From the NCBI GenBank assembly GCA_051294905.1, contig CM119373.1, forward strand, positions 3,474,001 to 3,534,000: a stretch of DNA of 60,000 bases, in the 5' to 3' direction. Source of the stretch: Botryllus schlosseri. Taxonomy: Eukaryota. Shown here piece by piece: positions 3,329-50,360 of this stretch (the stretch's first letter is position 1; every line of letters begins with the position of its first letter). Below the pieces are notes generated by a model that saw nothing but the letters and a program-made list of their open reading frames with translations, did not search any database and was not told where the DNA came from. Both the position numbers and the translations under genes were made by a program.

Positions 3329-5347
3329 ATGACAGGGTATGACAGGGTATGGCAGGGAGCAATAGTGTATAAACTCCATAGTCTTGGTATTCGCGGTAGT
3401 TCGTTACGTTGGTTGAACTCCTTCCTTAAACATCGGTCATTTCAAGTTAGAATTTTAGATCAGCTGTCTGATACTTTCCATACGACAAATGGCACACCAC
3501 AAGGAAGTATTTTAAGCCCAGTTTTGTTTGCAATCATGATGAATGACTTACCCGTAGAAGCCACTTGTCATATCAACCTATACGCAGACGATATATGTAT
3601 TTACGATTCAAACTTGAATGCGTTGGACCTCCAGCAAAATATACAGCACTCCTTGAAGAAGGTTGCTAATTGGTGTAAAAAGTGGGGATTGAAAATAAAC
3701 TTGAGCAAATCGGCTGCCATGCTATTCACGAGAAGGCGCAAGCCCGCAAATTTTGAGCTATCTCTCGATGGGTCGCGGATCCCGTTCGAAAGAGAATTCC
3801 GGTATCTGGGCATCACGTTTGATTCTAGACTTACCTACCGGCAACACTCCCGTCAAGTAGCTGAAAAATGTAGTAAGCGCCTGAATATCCTACGGTGTCT
3901 GCGAGGCACATCCTGGGGTGCGTCTACGTCATGCATGATATTACTTTATAGGGCCATTATTCGCTCCATAATGGAATATGGACTCGAGGCATATTTTATA
4001 GCACCGAAGTATGTCAGTCAAACCATACAGAAGATACAAAACTCTGCTCTAAGGCTCTGTAGTGGGGCAATGATTAGCACCCCAACGATCGCGCTACAGA
4101 CTTTTTGTAACGAATTACCGATACATCTTCGGCACCTGCAAGCATGCGCCGCATACCGGTGCACAATATTGTGCCAACCTAGACACCATTGCTTATCGGT
4201 AACACAACACTCCTGGCACGAAATTTTTCCAGACTCGGAAAATTTCAAGACATTCAATATGATATCTAATATAGACCCGCTCAGAAACATAAAACTCACC
4301 CGAATTGAACCCGCTTCTGTACCCCCATGGATTCCTTTGGAAATTTCAGTAGACCTAAGTCTTGGCTCGAAGACCTTGAACATCGAACACCCCGATGCAA
4401 TCAGAATTGAGTGCGAGGAGTATATGTCTACCCACTACAATCATCATTTGGCTATATATACTGACGGTTCAAAAACTGACCAGGGATGCGGTGCCAGCTA
4501 CTACATCCCAACACTTGGTGTCTCTTTCAATCTTTCCTTGAGTAGTTTAAAAAGTGTGTACTCTGCGGAGCTTATCGCCATCAAGGAAAGCCTGTTGTGG
4601 GCATGCAGTAACTGTCCATCAAACTCAGATATTGCTATTTTTACAGACAGTCAAAGTGCGACCAAAGCCATCGAACAAAGACTCAACGAAGGCAACATGG
4701 TTATCGATGACATCATTCAGTGTATTTCTCGTCTCTCGTCAAGCGGCAGCCGCACAACAATTATATGGATCCCGGCTCACAAAGGAATAGTAAACAACGA
4801 AGTGGCGGATAGGCTTGCTAAAGCTGCAGCGAACATTGTTAACAATGGAATGGAAGTGATTTCGCTGACGCTTAGCGAATGCAAATCCATGATATCAGAC
4901 TTCTGTCGCACAAAATGGAAAAAGGAGATACGGGATCGGGAAACGAGCTCCAGATATGTTCGCCTGGTGAATTCGGTCGGTGCAACCTCCCAGCTACACG
5001 AACTGACTCAGCGTGAAAACTCTATCCTTATTCGGCTTCAAACAGGTCACTGTCGACTAAATGCACACCTGCACCGAATTGGCCAGCATGACAGTGGTCT
5101 CTGTGAACGATGCCACGTGCCCGAAACGTTAGAACACTTCATATTTACATGCACGCGTTACCGAGCACAAAGAGGTTACCTACTCGGTAGGTGTAATCTA
5201 CAACAACTTCCAACGGACCTTCACGTACTACTGAACAATCCTATAATGGTACATCCATTAATAGATTATGTGATTTTGACCGGAAGGGGATATAACCCCC
5301 AAGCAACCCTCCCATTCAGGCCTGGCGCACAAAGCCCTAGTTGCTGA
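3329..5347 (+). CDS. Truncated non-LTR reverse transcriptase with RNase H
   Basis: RT motifs GTPQGSILSP and YADD. RNase H motifs YTDGSK, SAEL, TDSQ and WIPAHKGIVNNEVAD. Zinc knuckle CERCHVPETLEHFIFTC. The ATG is created by the TSD/element junction. Confidence 0.88.
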   Translation: MTGYDRVWQGAIVYKLHSLGIRGSSLRWLNSFLKHRSFQVRILDQLSDTFHTTNGTPQGSILSPVLFAIMMNDLPVEATCHINLYADDICIYDSNLNALDLQQNIQHSLKKVANWCKKWGLKINLSKSAAMLFTRRRKPANFELSLDGSRIPFEREFRYLGITFDSRLTYRQHSRQVAEKCSKRLNILRCLRGTSWGASTSCMILLYRAIIRSIMEYGLEAYFIAPKYVSQTIQKIQNSALRLCSGAMISTPTIALQTFCNELPIHLRHLQACAAYRCTILCQPRHHCLSVTQHSWHEIFPDSENFKTFNMISNIDPLRNIKLTRIEPASVPPWIPLEISVDLSLGSKTLNIEHPDAIRIECEEYMSTHYNHHLAIYTDGSKTDQGCGASYYIPTLGVSFNLSLSSLKSVYSAELIAIKESLLWACSNCPSNSDIAIFTDSQSATKAIEQRLNEGNMVIDDIIQCISRLSSSGSRTTIIWIPAHKGIVNNEVADRLAKAAANIVNNGMEVISLTLSECKSMISDFCRTKWKKEIRDRETSSRYVRLVNSVGATSQLHELTQRENSILIRLQTGHCRLNAHLHRIGQHDSGLCERCHVPETLEHFIFTCTRYRAQRGYLLGRCNLQQLPTDLHVLLNNPIMVHPLIDYVILTGRGYNPQATLPFRPGAQSPSC

Positions 5348-5379: not shown

Positions 5380-6006
5380 CACTGGTAAATACACACATAA
5401 TCCGGGGAGCAGCCTGCCTGCAGAGGAAAATGGCGAGATTGGAGTGAATTTTTAATATTCCCGTAGTACAGTCAAGTTTTTATTCCTATGCAATATATGA
5501 AGAGGTCAGATTAAGGAATTGCGGTAGATCATCGCTCTTCAACCGGGTGTATCGTACACCCTGGCGTGTGCCAAAATACTAAAAAGGGTTTAACACTCAG
5601 ATGGGGTGTACCAGATCCGAATTAAAATAGACCGATGACTATAGCCATCAAATACACAGGCAAGTTTATGCTTCAAAACATGTTCACCGGGTGTGTAATA
5701 TCGTGCAATATGTTCATGTTCATATAGGCCAGGGCCGGCCAACCCGTGGCCCGCGGGCCACATGTGGCCCGCGAGAAGGTTTTGAGTGGCCCGCGAGGTC
5801 ATTTCCGAAATTTCTAATATCATCAAAAATGGATTGCACAGATTGTGAACTTGCAAGGCCAACCGGAAATTTGATTAGTCTGGCCGCAACACTTGAGATG
5901 TGATGACTAAAATATCGGTTCCGACGCATTGACAGTTCCATTAGCCATTCACATATTGGTATATCTTCAGAATAACGCGAAACAATAACTTCATATTGTT
6001 AATTTA

Positions 6007-6046
6007 TTCGCTAAAAGCTTTTCGACTAACTCTCATCAGTAGCGAA
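6007..6046 (-). ncRNA. Minimal type I hammerhead ribozyme (inverted pLTR copy)
   Basis: Reverse complement reads TTCGCTA-CTGATGA-GAGTTAGTC-GAA-AAGCTT-T-TAGCGAA. Confidence 0.85.
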
Positions 6047-7512
6047 CGTTAGTGATGGGGTGAATCAAATTCGAAATGTAAGAACTATTTTGTCTGTATG
6101 ACGTAATAATAACAAAAACAAACAACTAGTAGACGGGCTAGATACGGTAGTAACGGTACAAAACAAACGTTACGAGTACATATTCGGTTATAAATAACCG
6201 AAAACACAACACATAACATTAATGAAATATTCCAAGAGTGTAGAGGCGTTCCTTCTGGCGACAGAGAATCGGCTTTCGTAGCTTTATGATCGTAGATTCC
6301 AGGACCTTTAAATGAAAAAGAGAACGGCCACGAGCAAGTATAGAAAATTGACTGTCGTTGTAATGATCAGCACAATCTGGATGGGATAAGAGATGCTGTC
6401 CAATAGCCGAATTACAAGCAGTAACTTGATCATAATCACGCAGTGTGTCAACAGACTGCGATGAAGGAGTTGGAGAAACATTATTTATTCTAATTTGCCG
6501 TGGGACATGCTGGCGAATTCTTTGCTGCAAGCGCTGAGACGTGCGACCTACATACCGACTGTCACATCGGCACGTGTATTCATATATTATATTGCTTTGA
6601 TTTGTCGCAGGTAGCACATCCTTTTGTGTTGCAGGCATCAGAGATTTCGTCGTGAAGATTATCTGAGGTTCTACTTGTGAAAAACAATGGCTCACTGACG
6701 ATTTAATTTGTTTTTCAAACCTGTTGGACACTTTCCCAATCCAAGGAAGATGCAAATAAACAGGACATTTTCTAGGTCCGAACGGTTTAACGGTCCTGTT
6801 TATTTGCATCTTCCTTGGATTGGGAAAGTGTCCAACAGGTTTGAAAAACAAATTAAATCGTCAGTGAGCCATTGTTTTTCACAAGTAGAACCTCAGATAA
6901 TCTTCACGACGAAATCTCTGATGCCTGCAACACAAAAGGATGTGCTACCTGCGACAAATCAAAGCAATATAATATATGAATACACGTGCCGATGTGACAG
7001 TCGGTATGTAGGTCGCACGTCTCAGCGCTTGCAGCAAAGAATTCGCCAGCATGTCCCACGGCAAATTAGAATAAATAATGTTTCTCCAACTCCTTCATCG
7101 CAGTCTGTTGACACACTGCGTGATTATGATCAAGTTACTGCTTGTAATTCGGCTATTGGACAGCATCTCTTATCCCATCCAGATTGTGCTGATCATTACA
7201 ACGACAGTCAATTTTCTATACTTGCTCGTGGCCGTTCTCTTTTTCATTTAAAGGTCCTGGAATCTACGATCATAAAGCTACGAAAGCCGATTCTCTGTCG
7301 CCAGAAGGAACGCCTCTACACTCTTGGAATATTTCATTAATGTTATGTGTTGTGTTTTCGGTTATTTATAACCGAATATGTACTCGTAACGTTTGTTTTG
7401 TACCGTTACTACCGTATCTAGCCCGTCTACTAGTTGTTTGTTTTTGTTATTATTACGTCATACAGACAAAATAGTTCTTACATTTCGAATTTGATTCACC
7501 CCATCACTAACG

Positions 7513-7552
7513 TTCGCTACTGATGAGAGTTAGTCGAAAAGCTTTTAGCGAA
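7513..7552 (+). ncRNA. Minimal type I hammerhead ribozyme
   Basis: Stem I TTCGCTA/TAGCGAA, core CTGATGA, 2-bp stem II, GAAA, palindromic AAGCTT in place of stem III. Followed by AATAAA and the ORF ATG. Confidence 0.87.
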
Positions 7553-7564
7553 TAAATTAACAAT

Positions 7565-10117
7565 ATGAAGTTATTGTTTCGCGTTATTCTGAAGTTCTGT
7601 ACCACAAATCACTTGTTCAAATACTTTCGCAAAAGGTACAGTGACCAACAATTGGAGATCCTTAATAAGTTGGTCAGAACTCGGGGGAAAATTCGAAATC
7701 TGCGGTATCATGTAGCCTTTCTTAAGGCTTGTATAAAGAAAAGAGTTGTACCAAAGTTTCTGAAGACGAGGATAGAGAAATCGCGTGCTCGCATCAACTC
7801 CAGGATTGAGAGTGCATTTTTACATGATGAGATCGAGAACAGCATAAAAGAGATGAGTACCGTAACGCAACGTTGTGCCAAGCTTAAGCAGCAGGCAGTG
7901 CAGTTTTTATCTTATTTTGACCTGATACGGTTTTGTCGTTATATGGCCAAAATTGATGCACGTAAAGAGGATGAGAAGGTACGGCAGAATGAGCGTAACA
8001 TCAGCTTGCTTCTCAAGACACGATACGGTACCAAGGCAGTTGCTGGTAGTAAGGTTATTACCAACTTATCGGACTATGAGCTGAGTGGCACAGAAGAGTT
8101 GGTACTATCTCTTGGTCTTGATTTTTCTGTGCCACCGACAGAAATCAAGCGTGAGGAAGTCTTTGCTGAATTTGAGGTATTACTTGGACAATTGTCACAT
8201 CATCACCAGAAATTTGATGATGAAAGCAGAGCAAAGGAACACAGTGAGAAAATTGTGGCCCTTAAAGCCAAACTAAGTAGCTTAGCGCATGGTTTTTGTG
8301 GAACTCCAATCGACAGAAGTGATTTCACGATGACGTCCGATTGCTACAGGAGCATCAGATCCCTGAAATCCAATAAGTCAATTCACATAACCAAACCTGA
8401 TAAAGGATCTGGTGTAGTCATTTTGAATAAGTGTGACTACATTTCTAAAATGGATTTAATTCTCGGCGACAAGTCTAAATTTGAAATCCTTGGCCCTGCG
8501 TGTGACAATGACAACACCTCCAAGATAGAAGCTCGTATTCAGCGTCTACTATTGACCCTCAAGAAGGCGGGAAAAATCTCTTCTGCTGAATACGACGATA
8601 TCAGACCCACTGGCTCCATTCGACCACGTATGTATGGTCTTCCGAAGACCCATAAATCGAATGTACCCTTACGTCCGATACTATCGATGGTTGGATCAGC
8701 GTATCACAAAGTCGCGAAGTGGATTGCGAGATATCTTGAGCCGGTGAGTTTGCTCTATGGTGGTAACTGCATTCGTGACTCGTTCACATTTGCTGATACC
8801 ATTCGTAATGTTGATCTCGATGAGTCCGAAATCTCTATGTGTTCGTTTGATATATCTAGTTTATTCACGAACGTGCCAGTTCAAGAGACTATAGAGATTT
8901 GTGCCAATGAACTCTATGGTGGTGTCCTTCCATCTCCTCCATTCTCAAGGTCTTCTTTTGTTAAATTAATGCGATTGATCACTTGTGATGTCGAATTTAG
9001 TTTCAATAACACCATATATACACAAATCGACGGTGTTGCAATGGGATCGCCGCTTGGTCCCATTCTGGCTAACATTTTTGTGGGGTATTACGAAAAACGG
9101 TTATTCGAAGATATTGATCGACCATTAATGTATCAAAGATATGTTGATGACACCTTCGCCATATTTGAAAATGAATCCCAGTGTGATTTGTTTCTGAGCA
9201 AATTGAATGGTCTTCACCCATCACTGAAATTCACCATGGAAAAAGAGGTTAATAATTCATTAGCATTCCTTGATGTTTTAGTGGAAAAGACGGGTGCTAA
9301 TTTTGTTACATCAGTTTACCGTAAGCCTACATTCAGTGGGCAATACATTTCGTGGGATTCTTTCTGTCCAGTAAAACGTAAAGTAAATTTGATAAGAACT
9401 CTGGTACACAGGGCTCTGATGATATGTAGTAAAGTCAAACTTGATTCTGAATTGGAGAACATTCGGTCAATCTTTCAGTCAAATGGTTATCCTGATCATA
9501 TCATTAAAATGACCATAGATCGTAAACTCAAAGATTTCAGAAAAGTTAAACCGTTCGGACCTAGAAAATGTCCTGTTTATTTGCATCTTCCTTGGATTGG
9601 GAAAGTGTCCAACAGGTTTGAAAAACAAATTAAATCGTCAGTGAGCCATTGTTTTTCACAAGTAGAACCTCAGATAATCTTCACGACGAAATCTCTGATG
9701 CCTGCAACACAAAAGGATGTGCTACCTGCGACAAATCAAAGCAATATAATATATGAATACACGTGCCGATGTGACAGTCGGTATGTAGGTCGCACGTCTC
9801 AGCGCTTGCAGCAAAGAATTCGCCAGCATGTCCCACGGCAAATTAGAATAAATAATGTTTCTCCAACTCCTTCATCGCAGTCTGTTGACACACTGCGTGA
9901 TTATGATCAAGTTACTGCTTGTAATTCGGCTATTGGACAGCATCTCTTATCCCATCCAGATTGTGCTGATCATTACAACGACAGTCAATTTTCTATACTT
10001 GCTCGTGGCCGTTCTCTTTTTCATTTAAAGGTCCTGGAATCTACGATCATAAAGCTACGAAAGCCGATTCTCTGTCGCCAGAAGGAACGCCTCTACACTC
10101 TTGGAATATTTCATTAA
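7565..10117 (+). CDS. Penelope-like RT + GIY-YIG endonuclease, 850 aa (copy 1)
   Basis: RT motifs KPDKGSGVVIL, YGLPKTHK, LRPI, SFDISSLFTNVP, GVAMGSPLGP and RYVDD. GIY-YIG region IIYEYTCRCDSRYVGRTSQRLQQRIRQH. Confidence 0.96.
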   Translation: MKLLFRVILKFCTTNHLFKYFRKRYSDQQLEILNKLVRTRGKIRNLRYHVAFLKACIKKRVVPKFLKTRIEKSRARINSRIESAFLHDEIENSIKEMSTVTQRCAKLKQQAVQFLSYFDLIRFCRYMAKIDARKEDEKVRQNERNISLLLKTRYGTKAVAGSKVITNLSDYELSGTEELVLSLGLDFSVPPTEIKREEVFAEFEVLLGQLSHHHQKFDDESRAKEHSEKIVALKAKLSSLAHGFCGTPIDRSDFTMTSDCYRSIRSLKSNKSIHITKPDKGSGVVILNKCDYISKMDLILGDKSKFEILGPACDNDNTSKIEARIQRLLLTLKKAGKISSAEYDDIRPTGSIRPRMYGLPKTHKSNVPLRPILSMVGSAYHKVAKWIARYLEPVSLLYGGNCIRDSFTFADTIRNVDLDESEISMCSFDISSLFTNVPVQETIEICANELYGGVLPSPPFSRSSFVKLMRLITCDVEFSFNNTIYTQIDGVAMGSPLGPILANIFVGYYEKRLFEDIDRPLMYQRYVDDTFAIFENESQCDLFLSKLNGLHPSLKFTMEKEVNNSLAFLDVLVEKTGANFVTSVYRKPTFSGQYISWDSFCPVKRKVNLIRTLVHRALMICSKVKLDSELENIRSIFQSNGYPDHIIKMTIDRKLKDFRKVKPFGPRKCPVYLHLPWIGKVSNRFEKQIKSSVSHCFSQVEPQIIFTTKSLMPATQKDVLPATNQSNIIYEYTCRCDSRYVGRTSQRLQQRIRQHVPRQIRINNVSPTPSSQSVDTLRDYDQVTACNSAIGQHLLSHPDCADHYNDSQFSILARGRSLFHLKVLESTIIKLRKPILCRQKERLYTLGIFH

Positions 10118-10289
10118 TGTTATGTGTTGTGTTTTCGGTTATTTATAACCGAATATGTACTCGTAACGTTTGTTTTGTACCGTTACTACCGTATCTAGCC
10201 CGTCTACTAGTTGTTTGTTTTTGTTATTATTACGTCATACAGACAAAATAGTTCTTACATTTCGAATTTGATTCACCCCATCACTAACG

Positions 10290-10329
10290 TTCGCTACTGT
10301 TGAGAGTTAGTCGAAAAGCTTTTAGCGAA
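10290..10329 (+). ncRNA. Minimal hammerhead ribozyme with core substitution (CTGTTGA)
   Basis: Same as the other copies except A>T at 10300, conserved core position A6. Confidence 0.8.
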
Positions 10330-10341
10330 TAAATTAACAAT

Positions 10342-12894
10342 ATGAAGTTATTGTTTCGCGTTATTCTGAAGTTCTGTACCACAAATCACTTGTTCAAATA
10401 CTTTCGCAAAAGGTACAGTGACCAACAATTGGAGATCCTTAATAAGTTGGTCAGAACTCGGGGGAAAATTCGAAATCTGCGGTATCATGTAGCCTTTCTT
10501 AAGGCTTGTATAAAGAAAAGAGTTGTACCAAAGTTTCTGAAGACGAGGATAGAGAAATCGCGTGCTCGCATCAACTCCAGGATTGAGAGTGCATTTTTAC
10601 ATGATGAGATCGAGAACAGCATAAAAGAGATGAGTACCGTAACGCAACGTTGTGCCAAGCTTAAGCAGCAGGCAGTGCAGTTTTTATCTTATTTTGACCT
10701 GATACGGTTTTGTCGTTATATGGCCAAAATTGATGCACGTAAAGAGGATGAGAAGGTACGGCAGAATGAGCGTAACATCAGCTTGCTTCTCAAGACACGA
10801 TACGGTACCAAGGCAGTTGCTGGTAGTAAGGTTATTACCAACTTATCGGACTATGAGCTGAGTGGCACAGAAGAGTTGGTACTATCTCTTGGTCTTGATT
10901 TTTCTGTGCCACCGACAGAAATCAAGCGTGAGGAAGTCTTTGCTGAATTTGAGGTATTACTTGGACAATTGTCACATCATCACCAGAAATTTGATGATGA
11001 AAGCAGAGCAAAGGAACACAGTGAGAAAATTGTGGCCCTTAAAGCCAAACTAAGTAGCTTAGCGCATGGTTTTTGTGGAACTCCAATCGACAGAAGTGAT
11101 TTCACGATGACGTCCGATTGCTACAGGAGCATCAGATCCCTGAAATCCAATAAGTCAATTCACATAACCAAACCTGATAAAGGATCTGGTGTAGTCATTT
11201 TGAATAAGTGTGACTACATTTCTAAAATGGATTTAATTCTCGGCGACAAGTCTAAATTTGAAATCCTTGGCCCTGCGTGTGACAATGACAACACCTCCAA
11301 GATAGAAGCTCGTATTCAGCGTCTACTATTGACCCTCAAGAAGGCGGGAAAAATCTCTTCTGCTGAATACGACGATATCAGACCCACTGGCTCCATTCGA
11401 CCACGTATGTATGGTCTTCCGAAGACCCATAAATCGAATGTACCCTTACGTCCGATACTATCGATGGTTGGATCAGCGTATCACAAAGTCGCGAAGTGGA
11501 TTGCGAGATATCTTGAGCCGGTGAGTTTGCTCTATGGTGGTAACTGCATTCGTGACTCGTTCACATTTGCTGATACCATTCGTAATGTTGATCTCGATGA
11601 GTCCGAAATCTCTATGTGTTCGTTTGATATATCTAGTTTATTCACGAACGTGCCAGTTCAAGAGACTATAGAGATTTGTGCCAATGAACTCTATGGTGGT
11701 GTCCTTCCATCTCCTCCATTCTCAAGGTCTTCTTTTGTTAAATTAATGCGATTGATCACTTGTGATGTCGAATTTAGTTTCAATAACACCATATATACAC
11801 AAATCGACGGTGTTGCAATGGGATCGCCGCTTGGTCCCATTCTGGCTAACATTTTTGTGGGGTATTACGAAAAACGGTTATTCGAAGATATTGATCGACC
11901 ATTAATGTATCAAAGATATGTTGATGACACCTTCGCCATATTTGAAAATGAATCCCAGTGTGATTTGTTTCTGAGCAAATTGAATGGTCTTCACCCATCA
12001 CTGAAATTCACCATGGAAAAAGAGGTTAATAATTCATTAGCATTCCTTGATGTTTTAGTGGAAAAGACGGGTGCTAATTTTGTTACATCAGTTTACCGTA
12101 AGCCTACATTCAGTGGGCAATACATTTCGTGGGATTCTTTCTGTCCAGTAAAACGTAAAGTAAATTTGATAAGAACTCTGGTACACAGGGCTCTGATGAT
12201 ATGTAGTAAAGTCAAACTTGATTCTGAATTGGAGAACATTCGGTCAATCTTTCAGTCAAATGGTTATCCTGATCATATCATTAAAATGACCATAGATCGT
12301 AAACTCAAAGATTTCAGAAAAGTTAAACCGTTCGGACCTAGAAAATGTCCTGTTTATTTGCATCTTCCTTGGATTGGGAAAGTGTCCAACAGGTTTGAAA
12401 AACAAATTAAATCGTCAGTGAGCCATTGTTTTTCACAAGTAGAACCTCAGATAATCTTCACGACGAAATCTCTGATGCCTGCAACACAAAAGGATGTGCT
12501 ACCTGCGACAAATCAAAGCAATATAATATATGAATACACGTGCCGATGTGACAGTCGGTATGTAGGTCGCACGTCTCAGCGCTTGCAGCAAAGAATTCGC
12601 CAGCATGTCCCACGGCAAATTAGAATAAATAATGTTTCTCCAACTCCTTCATCGCAGTCTGTTGACACACTGCGTGATTATGATCAAGTTACTGCTTGTA
12701 ATTCGGCTATTGGACAGCATCTCTTATCCCATCCAGATTGTGCTGATCATTACAACGACAGTCAATTTTCTATACTTGCTCGTGGCCGTTCTCTTTTTCA
12801 TTTAAAGGTCCTGGAATCTACGATCATAAAGCTACGAAAGCCGATTCTCTGTCGCCAGAAGGAACGCCTCTACACTCTTGGAATATTTCATTAA
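10342..12894 (+). CDS. Penelope-like RT + GIY-YIG endonuclease, 850 aa (copy 2)
   Basis: Translation identical to copy 1, offset by 2777 bp. Confidence 0.96.
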   Translation: MKLLFRVILKFCTTNHLFKYFRKRYSDQQLEILNKLVRTRGKIRNLRYHVAFLKACIKKRVVPKFLKTRIEKSRARINSRIESAFLHDEIENSIKEMSTVTQRCAKLKQQAVQFLSYFDLIRFCRYMAKIDARKEDEKVRQNERNISLLLKTRYGTKAVAGSKVITNLSDYELSGTEELVLSLGLDFSVPPTEIKREEVFAEFEVLLGQLSHHHQKFDDESRAKEHSEKIVALKAKLSSLAHGFCGTPIDRSDFTMTSDCYRSIRSLKSNKSIHITKPDKGSGVVILNKCDYISKMDLILGDKSKFEILGPACDNDNTSKIEARIQRLLLTLKKAGKISSAEYDDIRPTGSIRPRMYGLPKTHKSNVPLRPILSMVGSAYHKVAKWIARYLEPVSLLYGGNCIRDSFTFADTIRNVDLDESEISMCSFDISSLFTNVPVQETIEICANELYGGVLPSPPFSRSSFVKLMRLITCDVEFSFNNTIYTQIDGVAMGSPLGPILANIFVGYYEKRLFEDIDRPLMYQRYVDDTFAIFENESQCDLFLSKLNGLHPSLKFTMEKEVNNSLAFLDVLVEKTGANFVTSVYRKPTFSGQYISWDSFCPVKRKVNLIRTLVHRALMICSKVKLDSELENIRSIFQSNGYPDHIIKMTIDRKLKDFRKVKPFGPRKCPVYLHLPWIGKVSNRFEKQIKSSVSHCFSQVEPQIIFTTKSLMPATQKDVLPATNQSNIIYEYTCRCDSRYVGRTSQRLQQRIRQHVPRQIRINNVSPTPSSQSVDTLRDYDQVTACNSAIGQHLLSHPDCADHYNDSQFSILARGRSLFHLKVLESTIIKLRKPILCRQKERLYTLGIFH

Positions 12895-13066
12895 TGTTAT
12901 GTGTTGTGTTTTCGGTTATTTATAACCGAATATGTACTCGTAACGTTTGTTTTGTACCGTTACTACCGTATCTAGCCCGTCTACTAGTTGTTTGTTTTTG
13001 TTATTATTACGTCATACAGACAAAATAGTTCTTACATTTCGAATTTGATTCACCCCATCACTAACG

Positions 13067-13106
13067 TTCGCTACTGATGAGAGTTAGTCGAAAAGCTTTT
13101 AGCGAA
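13067..13106 (+). ncRNA. Minimal type I hammerhead ribozyme (terminal pLTR)
   Basis: Intact CTGATGA...GAAA core, about 60 nt upstream of the element's 3' end. Confidence 0.87.
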
Positions 13107-14220
13107 TAAATTAACAATATGAAGTTATTGTTTCGCGTTATTCTGAAGTTCTGTACCACAAATCACTTGGTATATCTTCGTACACTACAATGAAGCAGAA
13201 TAATTTGCGGTAGATTTATCAAAGGTAAAAATTTTGGCGCAACATGTTGTCACTCGATTTCTTGTTTTTATTATTGTTGCCCTTTTGTGAAAATGGAAGA
13301 ACACCTAATGTATCAGATTGAGTCCAACTATATTCGCGATTACGAGACAAAGTGTCGTTCAACATATGCGACATTGCGTTTGCGCTCGCAGTAAGACCGT
13401 CGAAAATGAAACCTAGGCACGAAATGATTGACGCATGTTGGTCGCAACTTTCGATATCGATATGTCTAAACGCCGAATAGACCAGTCCTCGCTAAATTAG
13501 CCCAGCGATATACAACAGGCCCCGCAATATAGTCAAATGACAATATTATTGACTTATGAACTTCAAAAAATTTTCGCGCTTAGCGCGGCTAGTGGCCCGC
13601 GCAATACTTCGTCAATCGAATGTGGACCGTTGGCTTAAAAGGTTGGCCAGCCCTGATATAGGCTGTACTACGGGTTAGAGATATGTACGGGTTATGGAAT
13701 TAAAATATATTAAAGGATCGTTTAAGGCAGTGGTTCTTAACCTTTTTCACCTCGCGGACCGGTAAAATTTCAAAAAAATGTCTGGCGGACCGGTGAATTT
13801 TGAAAATTGAAATGAAGCCAGAATGCCACCGTTTTTTGCAATTATGTGGTGCTAGAGAGTGACATTTAGAGGGTTTTGATCGTGATTGATTATCTTCATG
13901 ATGGCATCCATGTGATTTTATGATGGTAAGTCTGTAGAGTCGAGGTAAAATTGCCTTATCCAGATGAACGTGCTACTGCCGAGAGTCGTTTACAGTATTT
14001 CGCACCGAAGGCCGTGGGTTTAACCGACCTCGCCAACTCGAACCAAGCACCTTGTAGTGCTACCTTGCTCATTGCCCACTGCCACCAGACGCATAGGCTA
14101 TTCAGGCAACTACGAATACAATGCTTCCGCAAGAAAACACCTTGCAGCAAACTATACCGGCCATCCGCAAATCCGGGCCGCAAAAGCACTTCGCTAGCCC
14201 GCCCCCAATGACGTTGATCT

Positions 14221-36458: not shown

Positions 36459-37125
36459 CAGGGCTCTTCAAAAATGACTTTTTTCTCAAATCGTACTGAC
36501 TACTTGATAAAATTGTTAGGTTACCCAATTTAAGCCTACACACCGAATTTGGTTCAATTCCAACCAGTAGCCGCATTGCTACGGGAGAAGAAAGTTTCTA
36601 TTTATTATATAAAAATAAATACCAAAAAAATTAGAAAATCTTCTGTTCACCCCATGAAAGTGTTAGGTTGTCTATAGAAACGATGTTCACCAAATTTGGT
36701 TCAATTCCAAACAGTGAAAGCGGAGTTATTGCCGTCGAAAAATTTGGATTTGAATAGAATAGTATAGTATTTAAGGTGGGTACCACTATAATAAATAATT
36801 AAAGAATTGGTCACCGTAAATACTATTTTATTCAAATCCAAATTTTTCGACGGCAATAACTCCGCTGCCACTGGTTGAAATTGAACCAAATTTGGTGAAC
36901 ATCGTTTCTATAGACAACCTAACACTTTCATGGGGTGAACAGAAAATTTTTGAAATTTTTTGTTATTTATTTTTATATAATAAATAGAAACTTTCTTCTC
37001 CTGTAGCAATGCGGCTACTGGTTGGAATTGAACCAAATTTGGTGTGTAGGCTTAAATTAAGTACCTAACAATTTTATCAAGTAGCCAGTACGATTTGAGA
37101 AAAAAGTCATTTTTGAAGGGCCCTA
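36459..37125. mobile_element. Foldback element (~310-bp inverted arms)
   Basis: (C/T)AGGGC(T/C)CTTCAAAAATGAC termini. Arms are complementary nearly to the centre at ~36790. No clear TSD. Confidence 0.85.
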
Positions 37126-37489: not shown

Positions 37490-40403
37490 TAGTGTAACGA
37501 CAAGAGGTGATCAAGTAGGGCTTTTTTGAATCTATTATAAGGCAATTCACGGATATGTGGTGGTAATGCATTCTAGATGATAGGTCCCGAGTAGTCGATA
37601 GATCTCTTAGTTAGGTTGCTATTGGGTGGGGGTAAGTAGATGTTTCCTTTAGACGAGGATCTCGTGTAATGGGAATGGACATGTTTAGCAGGTATGAAAA
37701 AGTCATCAAACACAGGAGGCAGACTATTGGAAAAATATTTGTGAACAACTTTTGATACTTCGAAGCGATATAGTTCATCAACTCGCAAAATTCGATGCTT
37801 ACGGTAGTAAGGCGATAAATTGGTACGTAAAGGTACAGATGAGATCAGCCGTATGGCACGGTTTTGCAGGGTTCGAATTCTGCACAAAAATGTTGTGCAT
37901 GCATTTCCCCATACTACTATTCCATATTGCAGATGAGAGTGAAAAAGAGAGAAGTAGATGGTTCGTAGCACTGATCTGGAAACCAAAGATTGGAGACGGG
38001 TCATTATTCCCACACACCGAGCTAGTTTTGATATTGTGCATTCAATATGCTGCTTCCAAGACAATTTGGAATCAATGGTGACGCCGAGATATTTTGCTGA
38101 GTCACATATTGAGATTTGTTTATGATTGATGTTCACAGTGAAATTATGACTGGCATTATTTAAAACGAGCATCTCGGTCTTATCTGCATTCAAACTTAGT
38201 TTGTTTGCTTGGAGCCATCTCGACACTTTTGGGAGCTCCATATTCACAGATGCATGCAAACCATCGACAGTGTTGGAGGTTATGAAGAGGTGAGTATCAT
38301 CAGCAAATAGCGTTGTGCGGAATAAAGATGCATTAACAATGTCGTTAATATAAATGAGGAAAAAAGTCGGTCCAAGGACTGAGCCTTGTGGCACTCCACA
38401 AGTTATATCTCTGGTAGTCGTTCTTAATGACCCCAGTTTAACAAATTGTTTGCGGTTTGCCAGGTAGCTTTCAAGTAGAGTTGCTGCAATACCCCTGATT
38501 CCATAGTGTTCCAGCTTGTATCTTAAGATTCTGTGGTTAACTGTGTCGAAAGCTTTGCGGAGATCGATAAAAATGCTGCAGCCACTTTCTTTTTGCTTGA
38601 TGGTTTTGTAATAGTCCGTGACAATTGATAGTATTGCATGGTTGGTGTTGTGGTTGGATCTGAATCCATGCTGAGTCGGAGACAGTACTGCATTCAATTC
38701 AAAAAAGTTCTTTAGTCGGCGGTCAATCAGTTTCTCAAAAACCGTGGCAAGATTTGGCAAAACAGATATTGGTCGGTAGTTAGAAATTAGCTTTTTACAG
38801 CCTTTCTTAAACACTGGCATTACTCTGGCAGTTTTCAGTGCATCTGGGAAAATGCCTAGACGTATCGACTCATTAAAGAAAATGCATATAACATCACCAA
38901 TAATATTAAAGACTAGCTTCAGAAAGTGAGTTGGGATGAGATCGGGTCCTACTGCTTTGTTACTTTTCATTTCAGATAATATGATCGCAACTACTCCTTT
39001 ACTTGTCGGCTCAAGAAAAATGGATTTCTGAGGGCCAGGACTCAAGTACGAGAGAAAGTCATCGGAGGAGTCTGGTATTGAAGATGCAAGATCCGGACCA
39101 ATGTTGCAAAAATACTGATTGAACTTTTCTGCTACTGCAAGCTGGTCTTTGATGATGCTGCCATTCTCGAGTAGCTCGATGTCATCAGCACTCTTGGGAG
39201 CATTACCTTTAGTTAGGTTGATAATTTCTCCAATGGTTTTCCATGTGTTCTTGGGATCTTTGGAGCACTCTTCAAATTTTTTTTGGAAGTATGCTTTTTG
39301 GCATTTTCTTTCATATGCGTCACTTGGTTTGCATATTTTTTGTACACTTTTTTGCCTTCGATGGTGCCTTGCAGATAGTAGTGCTTATGCATCCAATCCC
39401 TTGTTTTGATCGCAAATAGTATGTCATGACCAATCCAGGGTTTCGATTTCAAGCGCCTTGCATTGGGGTTGACTTTCCTAATTGGGAAAGATGTGTTAAG
39501 GGCTGCCCGCAGTTCCTCAATAAATTCTTCAAAATGGCGGTTGTAGTTGTCAATTGTGAGTGGAGGAATTTTGTAGTTGTTGAAGGTATTGCTGACAATT
39601 TCAATATACTCCTCAATACCGCGTGGGTTTAAGGGCGTTCGAGATTCAAATTCTTTAGCACAATGTGGCAGGGCCAATTTCATGTGGCAGATGATGGGAT
39701 AGTGATCAGTCATACTGTGTTGGAGCACAAAAGGGGACATGTGATATTGATGAGTGTTGCAGTAAAAGTGATCTAGTAGAGTTTTGGATTGATCAGCTAT
39801 TCTTGTGGGTTCAGTAATTATCTGAGCTATTCCATAAGAATCAAGCATTTCACGGTACCATGTGTTAAAGTTGGTGGTCTTCAGCATATCAATATTTATG
39901 TCTCCCATAATAAATATTTGTTCGTTAGCTGCCGTTAGCGTTTCCAGAATATTTGAGAATTCGTCAAGAAAAGTCTCTTGCTTTGTTCCTGGGTGTTTGT
40001 AGATGACTGCCACTGTGAGAGCTTTTTGTGCGTGTACTCTGACAAATATATATTCTACGCCTTCGGTTTCAAATTTTACGTCGGGCATCATGTCATATCT
40101 CAGACCTTCGTTGATGTATAGTCCAACACCTCCAGCGTTCGTTTTAGATGGCGAGTGTAAAAAGTTGAAACCTGTCAGGTTAACATTAGTCGTTGGATGT
40201 TCTTTCAACTTGGTCTCAGAGATTCCGATGATGGTTGGTGAGCAATTGAACATTTTAAACAGGGGGGGAATTTCATCTAGATGAGCTTGGAGGGATCTTG
40301 TGTTCAAGTGTGCAAGTAAAATTCCTTGAGATGATGGGATATCACTACTATTCGTTGAATTGATAGATCTGCAGTTGCTCACGTTGAAAAAGTTTTGAGC
40401 CAT
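37490..40403 (-). pseudogene. LINE ORF2 (APE endonuclease + RT), one frameshift and one nonsense codon
   Basis: APE motifs HLNTRSL, IGISET, GDINID, LDHFY and TDHYP. RT motifs DLRKAFDTV, GVPQGSVLGP and FADD. Frameshift at ~39295. TAG replaces Trp (GPII*NALP) at 37573-37575. Confidence 0.9.
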
Positions 40404-40450
40404 TTTTTAGTGTGGGTTGCGTTTGCAGTGTGAGAGCAGTATAGCAGTTT

Positions 40451-41280
40451 CTATTTGAGTTTATCAAGGTCATCCTTTGACTCAATGTGGATTCTGGGTG
40501 CGCCATCATTCTTTTTCATGTAGATATTTCCATTTGCAGTCCAGAGGTATTTGAAGCTTTTTTTTGTTTCGCAGCTCGCGCTTCAAAGAAAACATCTCTT
40601 CTGTAATTTGTTAAATTTTCGTTTAGGAAGAGTTGTTTCATTCCATCTACACCAAACTCCTTGATATCCCTTTTGGCCTTTTTCACTTTGAGGAATTCTT
40701 TTTTTGGTTGCTCTGAAGAGAATTTGGCTATAACGGGTCCTGTTTTGTCCTTATTTTTGAAGCGCACTCTATAACACTGCACAATCTGTGGCGCAGTAAT
40801 CTCAGCTTTCAAGGCGTTAGCTATTTTCATGATAGTTTCAGGCAGATTTTCTTTTTCGGAGTGGGGAACACCATGAAATTCCAGGTTGTTGTTTCGAGAT
40901 TGCTGCTCCAGGTTGTCGTTGGTGCGTTCTAGGTCAGATATTTTTTTGTTCAGGAATCTCATAGTTGACTCAATTTTTTCGTCTTCCTTGAGCATGGATT
41001 CTTGTGAGGCGAGTTCTAGATTTTTTTTGGTGTCCTCAAATTCTGCATTCATGAATTCCATGCCAGTCTTGCAAGATTCTATCTCTTTTCGCAGTTCTTC
41101 TACGGCAGAACCAGATTTTTTGATATCTTCAGCTGTAGTCTGCAGTTCTGAGATGATGTTGCGCAGTTCCTTGTTTTCTTCCTTCAACACTTTGACTTCA
41201 GCGAGCGTATCTTCCAGTTTTCTGTCCATCTTTTTCAGTCTCAGCAAGATGACATCTTCGTTTGTTCCGGGCTTTGTCAT
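40451..41280 (-). pseudogene. LINE ORF1 (coiled coil + RRM/CTD-like), frameshifted near C-terminus
   Basis: LEQQSRNNNLEFHGVP, GPVIAKF and LFLNENLT. The alternate frame continues FKYLWTANGNIYMKK after an A-run at ~40560. Confidence 0.85.
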
Positions 41281-41334
41281 TTTGTTTCTTGGATGGGTAT
41301 ATAGCCTAGATTATGGCCTAGACTACTTTAAATC

Positions 41335-43865
41335 TTAATACAACCAAATACTCCAATCAGACAAACAGACGGAAATGATGGTCGTAGAGAAAATATGCAT
41401 GCACAGTAGGCCTAGGGTTGTCCAAAATTTGGAAAATCTTAAAAATACCCCGTGATTGTGTCTCATTCCATAGATTATTGATAAAAAATAACAATGAGCC
41501 CAAAAGAAGCTCACGGGAACGCCGTTAAGATTTCGGCCAAAGCGTTTTAAAGTAGCTGCCCAAGAATGGGCGTGCCACCGACCATAGAACGGCGAGAAGA
41601 CTAGTAATCAAATAACCACGGCTCCTGATTGGCTAATTGGCTATGCTTCAATGATCACCACAGCAACAACTTGCTGATTATGTGCTCAAGGAGTCTGCTA
41701 CCGGTGGAGATTCTGAAATCGCGTTGTTGGTAGGTTGGCAGATGATGATTTAAGATTAATTCAGGACATGTTAAGGTACGAAATACATGATGAACAATCA
41801 GCAGCTGCTTCACAAAAACTTCTACAGCATGACTGCTTTATTGGAAGGAAACGGCTGTAGCCTACATGCCGTGTTTTCACCGAGGGAAAGCAAAGGCGCT
41901 TATGCAAGCGGTAAACGAATTCCCCGTTCGGAAAGGATCCATCATCAGTGAACACAAATATAAAGCTTATCAATGACACGATACCGTAATTTGTGTGATC
42001 TTATTAGGCTCAAGCTGTAATATATAGATGACGTTTTAAATGATATTGGAATCGGCTGAATCAGCGGGTTATGCTTGGCACTCCTCAGATGCTTACAGTA
42101 AATTGAATTCACTTGTAAGTGTTGCTAAAGTCCCCAATGATAACGCACACTCGCACAGGCTATGCCCAATGTGGTATGTCAAAGTCCCTATTGATCTCGC
42201 TGAAAATAGGTGTAAAGATAATCACAGACTATACTGCATAGTATCCAGCATAGTTTGGACATGATATCCAGCATTGTGCTTACTTTACACCTCTTTTCTG
42301 CAGCATCATTAAGGACTTTGACAACACTTACATGTGAATTCAATTTGCTGTAAGTATAACTGCCAAGCACAACCGGCTGATTCAGTCAATCCCTAGAGCA
42401 TTCAAAATATCAACTATATACTACAACTTGAGTCCAATAAGCTCACACAAAGTATAGTGTCATGGTCAAGATTTATATTTGTATTCACTGATGATGGATC
42501 CCTTCTGAAACGGGGAATTCGTTCACTACTTGCATAAGCGTCTTTGCTTTCCCTCGATGAAAACACGGCATGTAGGCTACAGCCGTTTCCTTCACAGCAA
42601 AGCAGTCATGCTGTAGAAGTTTATGTGAAGCAGCTGTTGATTGTTCATCATGTATTTCGTACCTTAACATGTCCTGGATTAATCTTAAATCATCATCTGC
42701 CAACCTACCAACAACGCGATTTCAGAATCCCCACCGGTAGCAGACTCCTTGAGCACATAATCAGCAAGTTGTTGCTGTGGTGATCATTGAAGCATAGCCA
42801 ATTAGCCAATCAGGAGCCGTGGTTATTTGATTACTAGTCTTCTCGCCGTTCTATGGTCGGTGGCACGCCCATTCTTGGGCAGCTACTTTAAAACGCTTTG
42901 GCCGAAATCTTAACGGCTTTCCCGTGAGCTTCTTTTGGGCTCATTGTTATTTTTTTATCAATAATCTATGGAATGAGACACAATCACGGGGTATTTTTAA
43001 GATTTTCCAAATTTTGGACAACCCTAATGCACAGTATTCGGCATCAGATAGAAATGGTAGATACGATCGTGAAGGTCAACTATTCTGATGACACCAGCAT
43101 CAACGAGGTAAACTTGTCTCTAGTCTGGCTGTAAAAACGTTAATGGAAAAAGGGAAAATAAAGAAGAAAATTTAAACGACGGTACCACAAGATCAAATGA
43201 TCAATGAAGCCATATTTGGGCGAGGCAGGACAACAGTGTTAATATGACGACACGAAGTAATTAAGTAGGTATTTTTTGAATCTAATATAAAGCAATTCAC
43301 GGATATTTCGTGATAATGCATTCCAGATGATAGGTCCTAAGTAGGCCTAGATTTCTTAGTTAGGTTGCTATTGGGTGGACATAAGTAGATATTTCCTTTT
43401 GAAGAGGCTCTCGTGTAATAGGAGTAAACATTTTAGCAGGTATGAAAAGTCATCCGCCACAGGATTCAAACTATTGGAAAATATTTGTGTATAACTTTTG
43501 ATACTTCGTAGCGATATAGTACGTCAAATCGCAAAATTCAATGCTTATGCTTGCGGTAGTAAGGCGATAATTTGGTGCGTAGGGGTACAGATGAGATCAA
43601 CCGTATCGCACGATTCTGCAGGGTTCGGATTCTGTACAGAAAAGTTTTGCATGCATGGCCATACTACGATTCCATATTGCAGGCGAGAGTGAAAATGTGA
43701 GAAGTAGATAGTTCGCAGTATTGATCTAGAAACCAAAGATTGCAGACGGGTCATTATTCCCACACACCGAGCTAGTTTTGACATTGTGCATTCAATATGC
43801 TGCTTCCAAGACATTTTGGCATCAATAGTGACGCCGAGATATTTTGCCGAGTAACTTATGGAGAT
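41335..43865 (-). mobile_element. Older 5'-truncated copy of the 37200-41330 LINE family, interrupted by the foldback
   Basis: 41335-41406 plus 43027-43865 align with 37230-38115 (SWKQHIECTMSKLARCVGIM). Confidence 0.85.
41413..43026. mobile_element. Large foldback DNA element (~730-bp arms), hATm-like termini
   Basis: TAGGGTTGTCC...GGACAACCCTA. TSD atgcacag at 41399-41406 and 43027-43034, with 6 extra nt (taggcc) on the left. Splits the 3' UTR of an older LINE. Confidence 0.88.
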
Positions 43866-43888: not shown

Positions 43889-44515
43889 CATAGTGTCCTA
43901 TGTGGTGTCGACACAGGCAAATCTCACGCCTCAGTGAAATTGTATCACGTCACAATTTCCATTTGGTTACAGGCAATTTGACGGTCATTTTTGACCGGCT
44001 TGCCGCGCAATAAATTTGGTAAAACGGGTATCAATCGAAAGCTGACTCTGCACTGATTACGAAAATATAAATTTTTTTCCGCTCGTGTCCCTGGAACTCC
44101 CACAATCAGCCTCGAATTTTTCATTGTTATGGAGATTTACATTGGGACGCAACAATGGTATCTGGCTCTTTTTCCCTTGAGTTACTCTCTCGTTTCGCCA
44201 GACAGCATTGTTACGTCCTGAGCTACTCTCTCGTTTCGCCAGACGGCATTGTTGCGTCCCAATGCCAATCTCCATAACAATGAAGAATTCGAGACTGATT
44301 GTGGGAGTTCCTGGGCCACGAGCGGAACAAAAGTTATATTTCCGTAATCAGTGCAGAGTCAACTTTCGATTGATACCCGTTTTACCAAATTTAATGCTCG
44401 GCAAGCCAGTCAAAAATGACCGTCAGATTGCCTGTAGCCAAATGGAAATTGTGACGTGATACAATTTCATTGAGGCGTGAGATTTGCCTGTGTCGAAACC
44501 ATATAGGACACTATG
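43889..44515. mobile_element. Palindromic MITE with CATAG termini (P-element-like)
   Basis: CATAGTGTCCTAT...ATAGGACACTATG with ~265-bp arms. Imperfect 7-bp flanks ctgaaac/ctaaaac. Central tandem repeat tactctctcgtttcgccagac. Relatives at ~32850-33182 and ~53710-53835. Confidence 0.75.
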
Positions 44516-48856: not shown

Positions 48857-49088
48857 CTGAAATGCAAGTTGGTGATGTCGTCTCGGTGAAGGTTTGAATT
48901 TAACTCGAAATGAATCGTTGAAACAAATATTTTAAATGTATGGTTGTTTGGACGGCAGTTCGATTTCTTGTCAGTACGACGAAGCACACTTGTACAACTA
49001 GATAACGCTAGTAGTCAGTTACGCTAATTAGACCGTAAGTTTCTCCCGGGTTAATAAAACTACATTAACGTATTCTTATTATGTTTAC

Positions 49089-49545
49089 CTTTGCTTGCTT
49101 CAGACACTCCCGCGTTCAGTAACTTGCCTCTGTTGAACAACTCCCCGTCTATTTGGTTGATCACGTAGACCCGGTACTCAATTAGCTGCCGCTTCCATAT
49201 CGGGTGCATATGGGAGAGTAATGTGCGCAATTGCGATTCCCTGTTTCGAAGCGGAATGATGATCGCAACCTTATATTCTGATTTACAGTTTGGCGGAGAG
49301 AAGCCACCTCCATGCAATAGTCCGAAACTAGCTTCTGTTATACTTATCGACGAATGCGCAGCTGACAAAGTGGGAATTTTCACTCTTCCCAACAGGTCGT
49401 GTCTGCTGCAACTTGTCTGATTATGATTCCGAGCCACCTGCCACCATCCGGAGCCTTGCGGATACAGAAACAGCGATGATAATACTATGCTCAACGCAGT
49501 TAACACGCACAACATAGCGAATAAAAACACTGCTGTTTTCCACAT
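49089..49545 (-). CDS. GT7 gene, coding exon 1 (type II signal anchor + stem + catalytic N-part)
   Basis: N-terminal TM helix. KVAIIIPLRNR and YVINQ...FNRGKLLNAG motifs. Donor G|GTAAAC. The joined exons give 1059 nt / 352 aa in frame. Confidence 0.93.
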
Positions 49546-50360
49546 GGTTGTGAGGCACCGTTAGGCGGATTTGAGTATAAACTCTCATATACTATACAGG
49601 TTATTGTCACGTGAACGAGTGCATGTGCGCTGAGAAAATATATGAAGATTAGACTATATGGGTAATCCAAGCTAGGTCTGTCACTGATAACAGTCGACAA
49701 TGCGTATCAAGGTTACCATATATTGACATTCGGAAAATAGGTTAATTTTCCCCGTACAATCGTCTGGCTGCTGTCAGAACTATAAAGGATGACGAGTTGC
49801 CAAAAAGAGGACATCCGGAAGCCTTCCGAGGACCTTTTCGATTTCTGGAAAAAGAAGGACAACTCCTTCCGGAGGACGTATTTTTGTGAATCGAATTATG
49901 GGCACTCTTTTGCGCCCACTAGCGGATTTTACAATCGGGTATGGACACGTTGTCTGTCAATATGACGTCACACTAGCAAAGCTTCGCCTGTCGAGTATAT
50001 ACAGGAGTGGAATGAAACATAGGTTTTGAATTGAGCCATCTCTAATGTGAGCTCTGGTGATTGCATGGGTCTGCAACAGATTTCTTCACGGGCCGGACGA
50101 AATCGTCTGGTGGACCTTATCCGGTCCGCCAGTTGTGTGTTTGACAGCCCTGCTATACTGTGAGGTCGGTGAGGTTATCTGGTTGTGTGTTGTAACCAGC
50201 TCCGAAACAACATTTTTCAGCCACCTTTCGCCCAAAAAAGCACTTATCTTGGGCCCATCATGGGGTAATCCATGCAACCTCAAGCGGGCTTACTATAAGC
50301 ATCTGCTTGGTAAAATTTGTGAATGAATTCTGTCAATAATGTTGGTTCTTCCATATAGAC

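Follow-up and report, generated by a model that had tools for sequence, protein, structure and literature searches.

A core substitution in one hammerhead ribozyme of a tandem Penelope-like insertion in Botryllus schlosseri, a probable passenger of array formation

Here we describe a single Penelope-like element (PLE) insertion at 5965-13169 of the window, the 60,000-nucleotide stretch of Botryllus schlosseri contig CM119373.1 that was analysed, which carries four copies of a hammerhead ribozyme, one of them altered at a single base of its core. The features of the insertion are given below, with signed positions counted from the start of the ribozyme (+1 = 10290 in the altered copy).

5956-5968, forward strand: left copy of the target-site duplication, 13 bp, its last 4 bases overlapping the element end
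5965-6791, reverse strand: inverted 5′-truncated arm, with unit positions 2033-2777, a ribozyme and a short tail to +82
6007-6046, reverse strand: hammerhead of the inverted arm, wild type, A6 at 6036
6793-7512, forward strand: 5′-truncated direct copy forming the upstream pseudo-LTR, unit positions 2058-2777
7513-7552, forward strand: hammerhead 1, wild type, between the partial copy and unit 1, predicted cut after 7545
7523-7555 and 13077-13109, forward strand: wild-type upstream ORFs, in frame with the main ORF, one stop between
7565-10117, forward strand: ORF of unit 1, 850 aa, with DKG motif, reverse transcriptase (RT) and C-terminal GIY-YIG endonuclease
10283-10288, forward strand: strand upstream of stem I, complementary to loop II (10306-10311), putative 6-bp pseudoknot
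10290-10329, forward strand: hammerhead 2, A6U, joining the two full units, predicted cut after 10322
10300, forward strand: A>T, core A6 to U
10300-10332, forward strand: position of the 10-codon upstream ORF, its AUG absent in the hammerhead 2 copy
10342-12894, forward strand: ORF of unit 2, identical to that of unit 1
13067-13106, forward strand: hammerhead 3, wild type, predicted cut after 13099
13107-13169, forward strand: long tail to unit position +103, beyond an intact scissile bond and holding the first part of a third ORF copy
13167-13179, forward strand: right copy of the target-site duplication, its first 3 bases overlapping the element end

The partial direct copy is followed by two full 2777-bp units and then the tail, giving a direct content of 0.26 + 2 units, and the inverted arm is 100% identical to the direct copies. 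The two ends of the insertion lie at +82 and +103, each figure including 3-4 bases common to element and target. High-copy host repeats (5753-5957 and 13170-13900) surround the insertion site, and the empty site is present in other copies of these repeats, where loose ends link the left flank straight to 13167. The 850-residue product matches RVT_1 at residues 367-548 (E 1e-9) and has DKG at 279 and YVDD at 526; its C-terminal 165 residues carry CxCD-x-YVGRT plus a downstream QH and give a weak match to GIY-YIG (PF01541, E 8e-4, 20.1 bits, under the Pfam cut-off of 22.6), and a search against solved structures returned a single weak RT match. Anatomy and domains identify the locus as a single recent insertion of a canonical PLE with an endonuclease. 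The available parts of PMC8557442 and PMC3846280 describe the same anatomy, namely a partial tandem with an inverted copy next to it, a ribozyme within the pseudo-LTR and a tail at one end. With the canonical EN+ PLEs of Penelope/Poseidon type, as far as these sources and PMC11167929 describe them, the element shares a single ORF with RT and C-terminal GIY-YIG, pseudo-LTRs formed by a partial tandem, the adjacent inverted 5′-truncated copy, a target duplication and the pseudo-LTR hammerhead.

Within each ribozyme, stem I pairs +1-7 with +34-40, the core box occupies +8-14 and GAAA +24-27, stem II has 1-2 bp, stem III is a 6-nt palindrome with a 2-nt loop, and the cut is predicted after +33, following UUU. 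The 7 bp of stem I are paired in 10 of 10 distinct rows, yet invariant. Three copies show all the type I features (CUGANGA, GAAA, stems I-III and UH at the cut), whereas the copy at 10290 departs from them at A6; an Rfam search at the gathering score gave no hammerhead match in the window. Bases -7 to -2 are complementary to loop II, with which they likely form a pseudoknot, as judged from base complementarity; one A-U pair has become G-C in five copies of an older subfamily (L144, L145, L146, L151 and L152), a compensatory change that is probably one inherited event. Small dimer-type type I hammerheads have reportedly been described from metazoan PLEs by Lunse et al. in 2016. The type I order, the CUGANGA and GAAA boxes, the G10.1-C11.1 pair and a stem III that is palindromic, very short and dependent on a partner are also found in the dimer-type hammerheads of metazoan PLEs presented in the available part of PMC4209133. 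The present ribozymes differ from these in having a stem II of 1-2 bp rather than 6-8, a loop II able to form a 6-bp pseudoknot, a UUU cleavage triplet and a core AUG that opens a 10-codon ORF in the main frame.

The substitution was first noticed in a reading of the sequence alone, which held that three ribozymes read CTGATGA and the one joining unit 1 to unit 2 reads CTGTTGA, and that this was the only difference spotted by eye between the tandem units. Both statements are borne out by a comparison of the four copies, in which each base of 6793-13169 was set against the bases 2777 and 5554 downstream and the inverted arm against both direct copies: position 10300, which we take to be A6 in standard hammerhead numbering, is the one variant position in 7,204 multi-copy bases. 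The A>T at 10300 is thus real in the assembly. In the wild-type ribozyme A6-U7-G8 forms an AUG that opens the 10-codon upstream ORF, which shares the main frame and stops 9 nt ahead of the main AUG, and A6U converts this AUG to UUG ahead of ORF 2. Were transcription to start near -7, the core AUG would be the first in the leader, so that its loss could raise the translation of ORF 2.

Differences confined to one unit are rare in this family. Across nine multi-unit arrays (eight with at least two complete tandem units, plus the one on C7; segment edges trimmed by 8 bases), we found two single-unit substitutions and one homopolymer indel in 100,571 multi-copy bases. The second of the two substitutions lies in the last unit of the array at C13:6.12M, in the ORF at unit position 1121, which makes a difference restricted to one unit a known kind of event here. 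The conserved core positions account for 0.49% of the array multi-copy bases; the chance that one of only two array substitutions would fall on a core base is thus about 1%, which tells against a purely incidental change, although the core match was picked out after the fact. The sequence-only reading had offered two explanations, a non-cleaving junction that allowed a dimer-length RNA to survive and be reverse-transcribed, or an error of reverse transcription, of the period after insertion or of assembly. The latter agrees with the data, and we regard A6U as probably a passenger that entered a single unit by miscopying or by a later point mutation and did not cause the tandem.

The proposed link between ribozyme failure and tandem formation was addressed by a census of the 495-Mb genome. 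The exact wild-type 42-mer ribozyme motif occurs 203 times, 209 motifs are found when any letter is allowed at 11 core-box positions, and 385 lie within two mismatches of a 35-mer. At most five of the 209 copies deviate at the 11 open positions, two of them being A6U, and these two, both T, are the only non-A bases at A6 in the genome. Other core changes (G5A, U16.1C, G5U and one deletion, with U7C at a variable position) occur in scattered copies. A 28-base ORF-start motif has 37 occurrences at 18 loci, including the window locus, all of which were examined; at least two complete tandem units are present at 8 of the 18, with up to four identical units. The following arrays serve as examples.

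C10:6.49M: four complete units, with 1.6 on the opposite strand, all ribozymes wild type
C11:0.89M: three and two units, all ribozymes wild type
C13:6.12M: two and two units, all ribozymes wild type
C6:30.41M: three units, all ribozymes wild type

The eight arrays contain 14 junctions between two full units, of which 13 are wild type, the sole mutant being that of the window; the junction between a near-full and a full unit at C7 is also wild type. On one strand of the C10 array five wild-type ribozymes stand in a row. The survey therefore does not bear out an enrichment of core mutations at internal junctions (1 of 14), and the idea that a dead junction lets a dimer RNA survive and so generates the tandem is contradicted by 13 wild-type junctions and by arrays of three and four units with intact ribozymes. 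Since the census finds no link between dead ribozymes and tandems in this Penelope-like family, the finding as originally posed becomes an ordinary one. The canonical EN+ PLEs differ in this respect, as far as the available text of the sources named above goes, from a family in which 8 of 18 ORF-start loci hold two to four complete identical units.

Four loci differ little from the window locus and appear to be its haplotype relatives (C12:26.18M by 9 differences, C12:22.21M and C7:5.33M by 4 each, and C6:16.43M by 1), and the other full units show about 26-34 differences. Judged by such differences, the window locus is the tip of a separate, recently active lineage that is rare in the other samples compared. 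At C12:26.18M (L056), four private substitutions separate the arms and the partial copy in 3,960 multi-copy bases, indicating either an older insertion or two templates.

The ends of insertions are informative about what happens at intact ribozymes. From the first 100 listed motif places we took 60 further dispersed loci on contigs C1-C8, requiring an intact motif and counting arm ends with a few bases of target homology. Their 85 arms end at +69 to +82 (44), at +98 to +112 (40) or at +49 (one); all 85 thus end downstream of the cut at +33, and 84 do so 36-79 nt past the scissile bond. Wild-type ribozymes are therefore routinely copied through, as was hammerhead 1 of the window locus, which stands intact between the partial copy and unit 1. 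We also selected loci by their tail alone, obtaining 30 tail-bearing loci from 41 matches (40 of 732 candidates were scored): none of the 30 has its 5′ end at the cut site (+34), 29 have a ribozyme upstream and one starts at +19. At their other ends, 8 of the 85 arms in the intact-motif sample stop between -16 and +12, against none between -32 and -17. Arms stopping at -2 to -15, by an Inr-like TCACT, are found at C6:30409360, C12:22211257, C11:13422092, L101, L112, L073, L109 and L113, and may reflect either the point where transcription starts or a halt of RT. An Inr-like TCACT just upstream of the hammerhead is likewise described for an Adineta element in the available text of PMC3846280.

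In all 36 inverted insertions that carry two tails, a short tail (+69 to +82) is paired with a long one (+98 to +112); 25 of these insertions are among L067-L126 and 11 among the array and ORF-start loci, and this regularity suggests paired priming on one RNA tail. Canonical EN+ PLEs resemble the family in carrying a tail at one end, given as 30-40 bp in the available parts of PMC8557442, PMC3846280 and PMC11167929; the strict pairing found here sharpens the published description that the tail is often present at only one end, and sets the family apart from them.

The expected consequences of A6U depend on how these ribozymes fold. The palindromic stem III with its 2-nt loop leads us to infer a dimer, in which the core and GAAA of one copy would meet the UH and the 3′ stem I strand of the other, so that each core would cut its partner's site. 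A designed dimer in which stems I and III are exchanged has a folding energy of -15.3 kcal/mol, against +0.1 for the monomer with closed stem III and -10.4 for two monomers without stem III together. The minimum-energy folds of monomer and dimer, computed without a pseudoknot, are non-hammerhead rods, which weighs against the passenger reading to the extent that it draws on cross-cutting deduced from topology. Within a limited library, no study was found that uses mutations to test cross-cutting in double hammerheads. If cross-cutting holds, the junction that carries A6U should gain no protection from it: cleavage of the partner's site would suffer, and site 2 would stay open to the wild-type core of copy 1 or 3. 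The prediction of the sequence-only reading, a 5554-nt rather than a 2777-nt product, presupposes monomeric cleavage in cis; with the dimer fold, a 5554-nt product alone would not be expected and 2777-nt pieces could still form.

The same reading had called A6 nearly invariant in active hammerheads. The importance of the position finds support for A6C in the available parts of PMC7151607 and PMC3088659, and our search of a limited library found no measurement for A6U. In one hammerhead at 0.3 mM Mg, A6C lowers the rate roughly 100,000-fold, from 0.3 per minute to 3.6e-6 per minute, according to the accessible text of PMC7151607, and both papers, in the parts available, give a smaller effect at higher Mg. 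A6U probably weakens the catalytic half of ribozyme 2. The A6C of phage Bcep176, to judge from the same excerpts, affects the same core position, with low activity expected in Mg; it differs in kind from the A6U found here, which occurs in 2 of about 209 copies and is not fixed in the family. Metazoan PLE hammerheads are themselves described as cleaving weakly, and only as dimers or trimers, in the available part of PMC4209133. For an in vitro PLE system, the accessible text of PMC11167929 reports that ribozyme mutants left insertion unchanged and that unprocessed RNA was the main substrate. The PLE hammerhead may release monomers and circles, or it may be dispensable, and a connection between failed ribozymes and tandem arrays would have borne on its role.

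The second A6U copy, at C11:13.42M, lies in a 190-bp head-to-head insertion with an 11-bp target duplication. It is a terminal fragment with no inter-unit junction: its 74-base arm carries A6U, its 112-base arm is wild type, and the arms match the window locus at all other 186 bases. The presence of the same substitution in an insertion whose arms otherwise match the reference is a point against regarding A6U as a passenger. It could point instead to a hot spot, where RT would make errors at the sharp turn of the folded core, or to RNA of the window locus, carrying U6, having templated the short arm at C11:13.42M. That both non-A bases at A6 are T, that A6U makes up two of at most five deviating copies among 209, that 8 of 85 arms stop at the ribozyme itself and that the C11 arms are identical to the window locus elsewhere all fit such an explanation, which we nevertheless hold to be unlikely. 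Outside the motif, 9 of 15,223 A site-copies in dispersed copies are A>T (0.059% per A; 320 of 59,505 site-copies carry singleton variants of any kind), and at this rate a second A6T among 208-384 copies has a probability of 0.12-0.20. Also against this explanation, the 112 bases involved contain no variant diagnostic for the window locus, and the other C11 arm is wild type, yet paired priming on one RNA tail suggests the same base in both arms; no other insertion carries U6. We also considered the recurrence against the error rate within arrays, by which it appears significant, and this significance was lost against the dispersed-copy rate. Descent from the window locus or a hot spot is possible, and neither is needed for a second A6U.

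An error of assembly or polishing, the animal having A at 10300, is in our view quite improbable. A single base inside a 2.8-kb tandem repeat is exposed to ambiguous read mapping, and T is known here from the assembly alone. However, the arrays are very clean, with three differences in 100,571 multi-copy bases, polishing derived from the repeat would be expected to push the base towards the majority A, and the same allele is present on another contig.

The notion that a non-cleaving junction spared a dimer-length RNA draws on the sole change having hit a conserved base of the core in the only full/full junction that the locus has, on the slowing of A6C cited above and on a review that proposes uncleaved oligomeric transcripts as the inserted form (PMC6765202, in its available part). 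It is nonetheless very improbable, given the 13 of 14 wild-type junctions, the run of five wild-type ribozymes at C10 and the insertions starting downstream of a wild-type site, both of which would be precluded by cutting strong enough to favour a mutant, the absence from the assembly of a donor array with U6, and a dimer fold that would let a partner core cut the mutant's own site. A search by titles and the openings of abstracts in a limited library found no literature linking core mutations to PLE tandem formation.

The passenger reading leaves the origin of the arrays themselves to be explained. Units within an array are identical, most arrays differ by about 1% from that of the window, and no unit-specific variant is common to different arrays. 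Copying from linear multimers alone could only shorten arrays and would keep the marks of individual units, which suggests that arrays are regenerated from one unit; they look copied from one unit-length template. In the mechanism we propose, the element protein would nick both target strands and prime reverse transcription at two sites that lie some 70-80 and 100-110 nt beyond the first base of the ribozyme, perhaps as a dimer that primes both strands at two tail sites of one RNA. RT would run through intact ribozymes and copy one unit-length sequence more than once, and either arm could run to several units (up to 4.35 + 1.6, and 2.9 + 2.9). Two templates would allow multiple passes: a circle, produced by the active dimeric hammerhead and a host ligase, or a linear RNA with repeated ends, where RT on reaching the 5′ end near -7 would jump back to the 3′ end. 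A circular monomer has been proposed in PMC4209133 and PMC6765202, as far as their available parts go, and the accessible text of PMC7229834 offers a model for such a template in the non-LTR retrozymes, whose monomers are circularised by an RtcB-type ligase. Those elements also share tandem repeats with type I hammerheads, whereas they are non-coding repeats of 170-400 nt and the present element is a 2.8-kb autonomous one for which a circle is hypothetical.

A6U would have arisen in a single unit, either by misincorporation during one pass or by point mutation after insertion; under each candidate route a change restricted to one unit arises during or after copying, so that it follows from array formation rather than causing it. 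Unequal crossing-over at the DNA level after insertion was also considered as a means of expanding arrays, and it would likewise yield identical units, but several units are already present at 8 of the 18 loci, all very young, and two loci are expanded on both arms. That the arrays stem from repeated RT passes over one unit-length template, with the window junction as a natural barcode, is a suggestion we make tentatively. The substitution would then be a one-pass error marking one junction, of which the short C11 arm could be the first descendant, and a unit 1 monomer, with its dead core and without the upstream AUG, would trace which junction is cut, ligated, translated and copied, nearly the opposite of a dead junction causing the tandem. 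The value of the family lies in its youth, its long identical arrays on both arms, its strict tail pairing and its one marked junction.

Reads from four of 24 listed runs were aligned on 10394-13900. Two contig sets represent mostly other haplotypes, with T at 11530 in 99-100% of the depth where the window has C; the tandem junction itself is present in both. The 3′ end of the element has RNA coverage, and 91% of the reads of one RNA run continue into unlike sequence. No pile-up of RNA ends was listed at the cut site, at low depth and with about 6 and 3 in 100 of the two RNA runs covered. Some transcripts end ahead of the downstream hammerhead: a poly(A) loose end is seen near 12941 (unit position about -126), upstream of the ribozyme, in 11 reads of run X24.

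Elsewhere in the window, the forward strand carries an RT and RNase H frame of a non-LTR retrotransposon at 3329-5347. On the reverse strand, 37573-41310 is a LINE-like element with a coiled-coil ORF1 followed by endonuclease and RT in two overlapping frames, and 49060-49560 is an exon-like frame that matches the N-terminal region of glycosyltransferase family 7. At 36460-37124, 41413-43026 and 43889-44515 there are long inverted-repeat elements that resemble MITEs or foldback elements.
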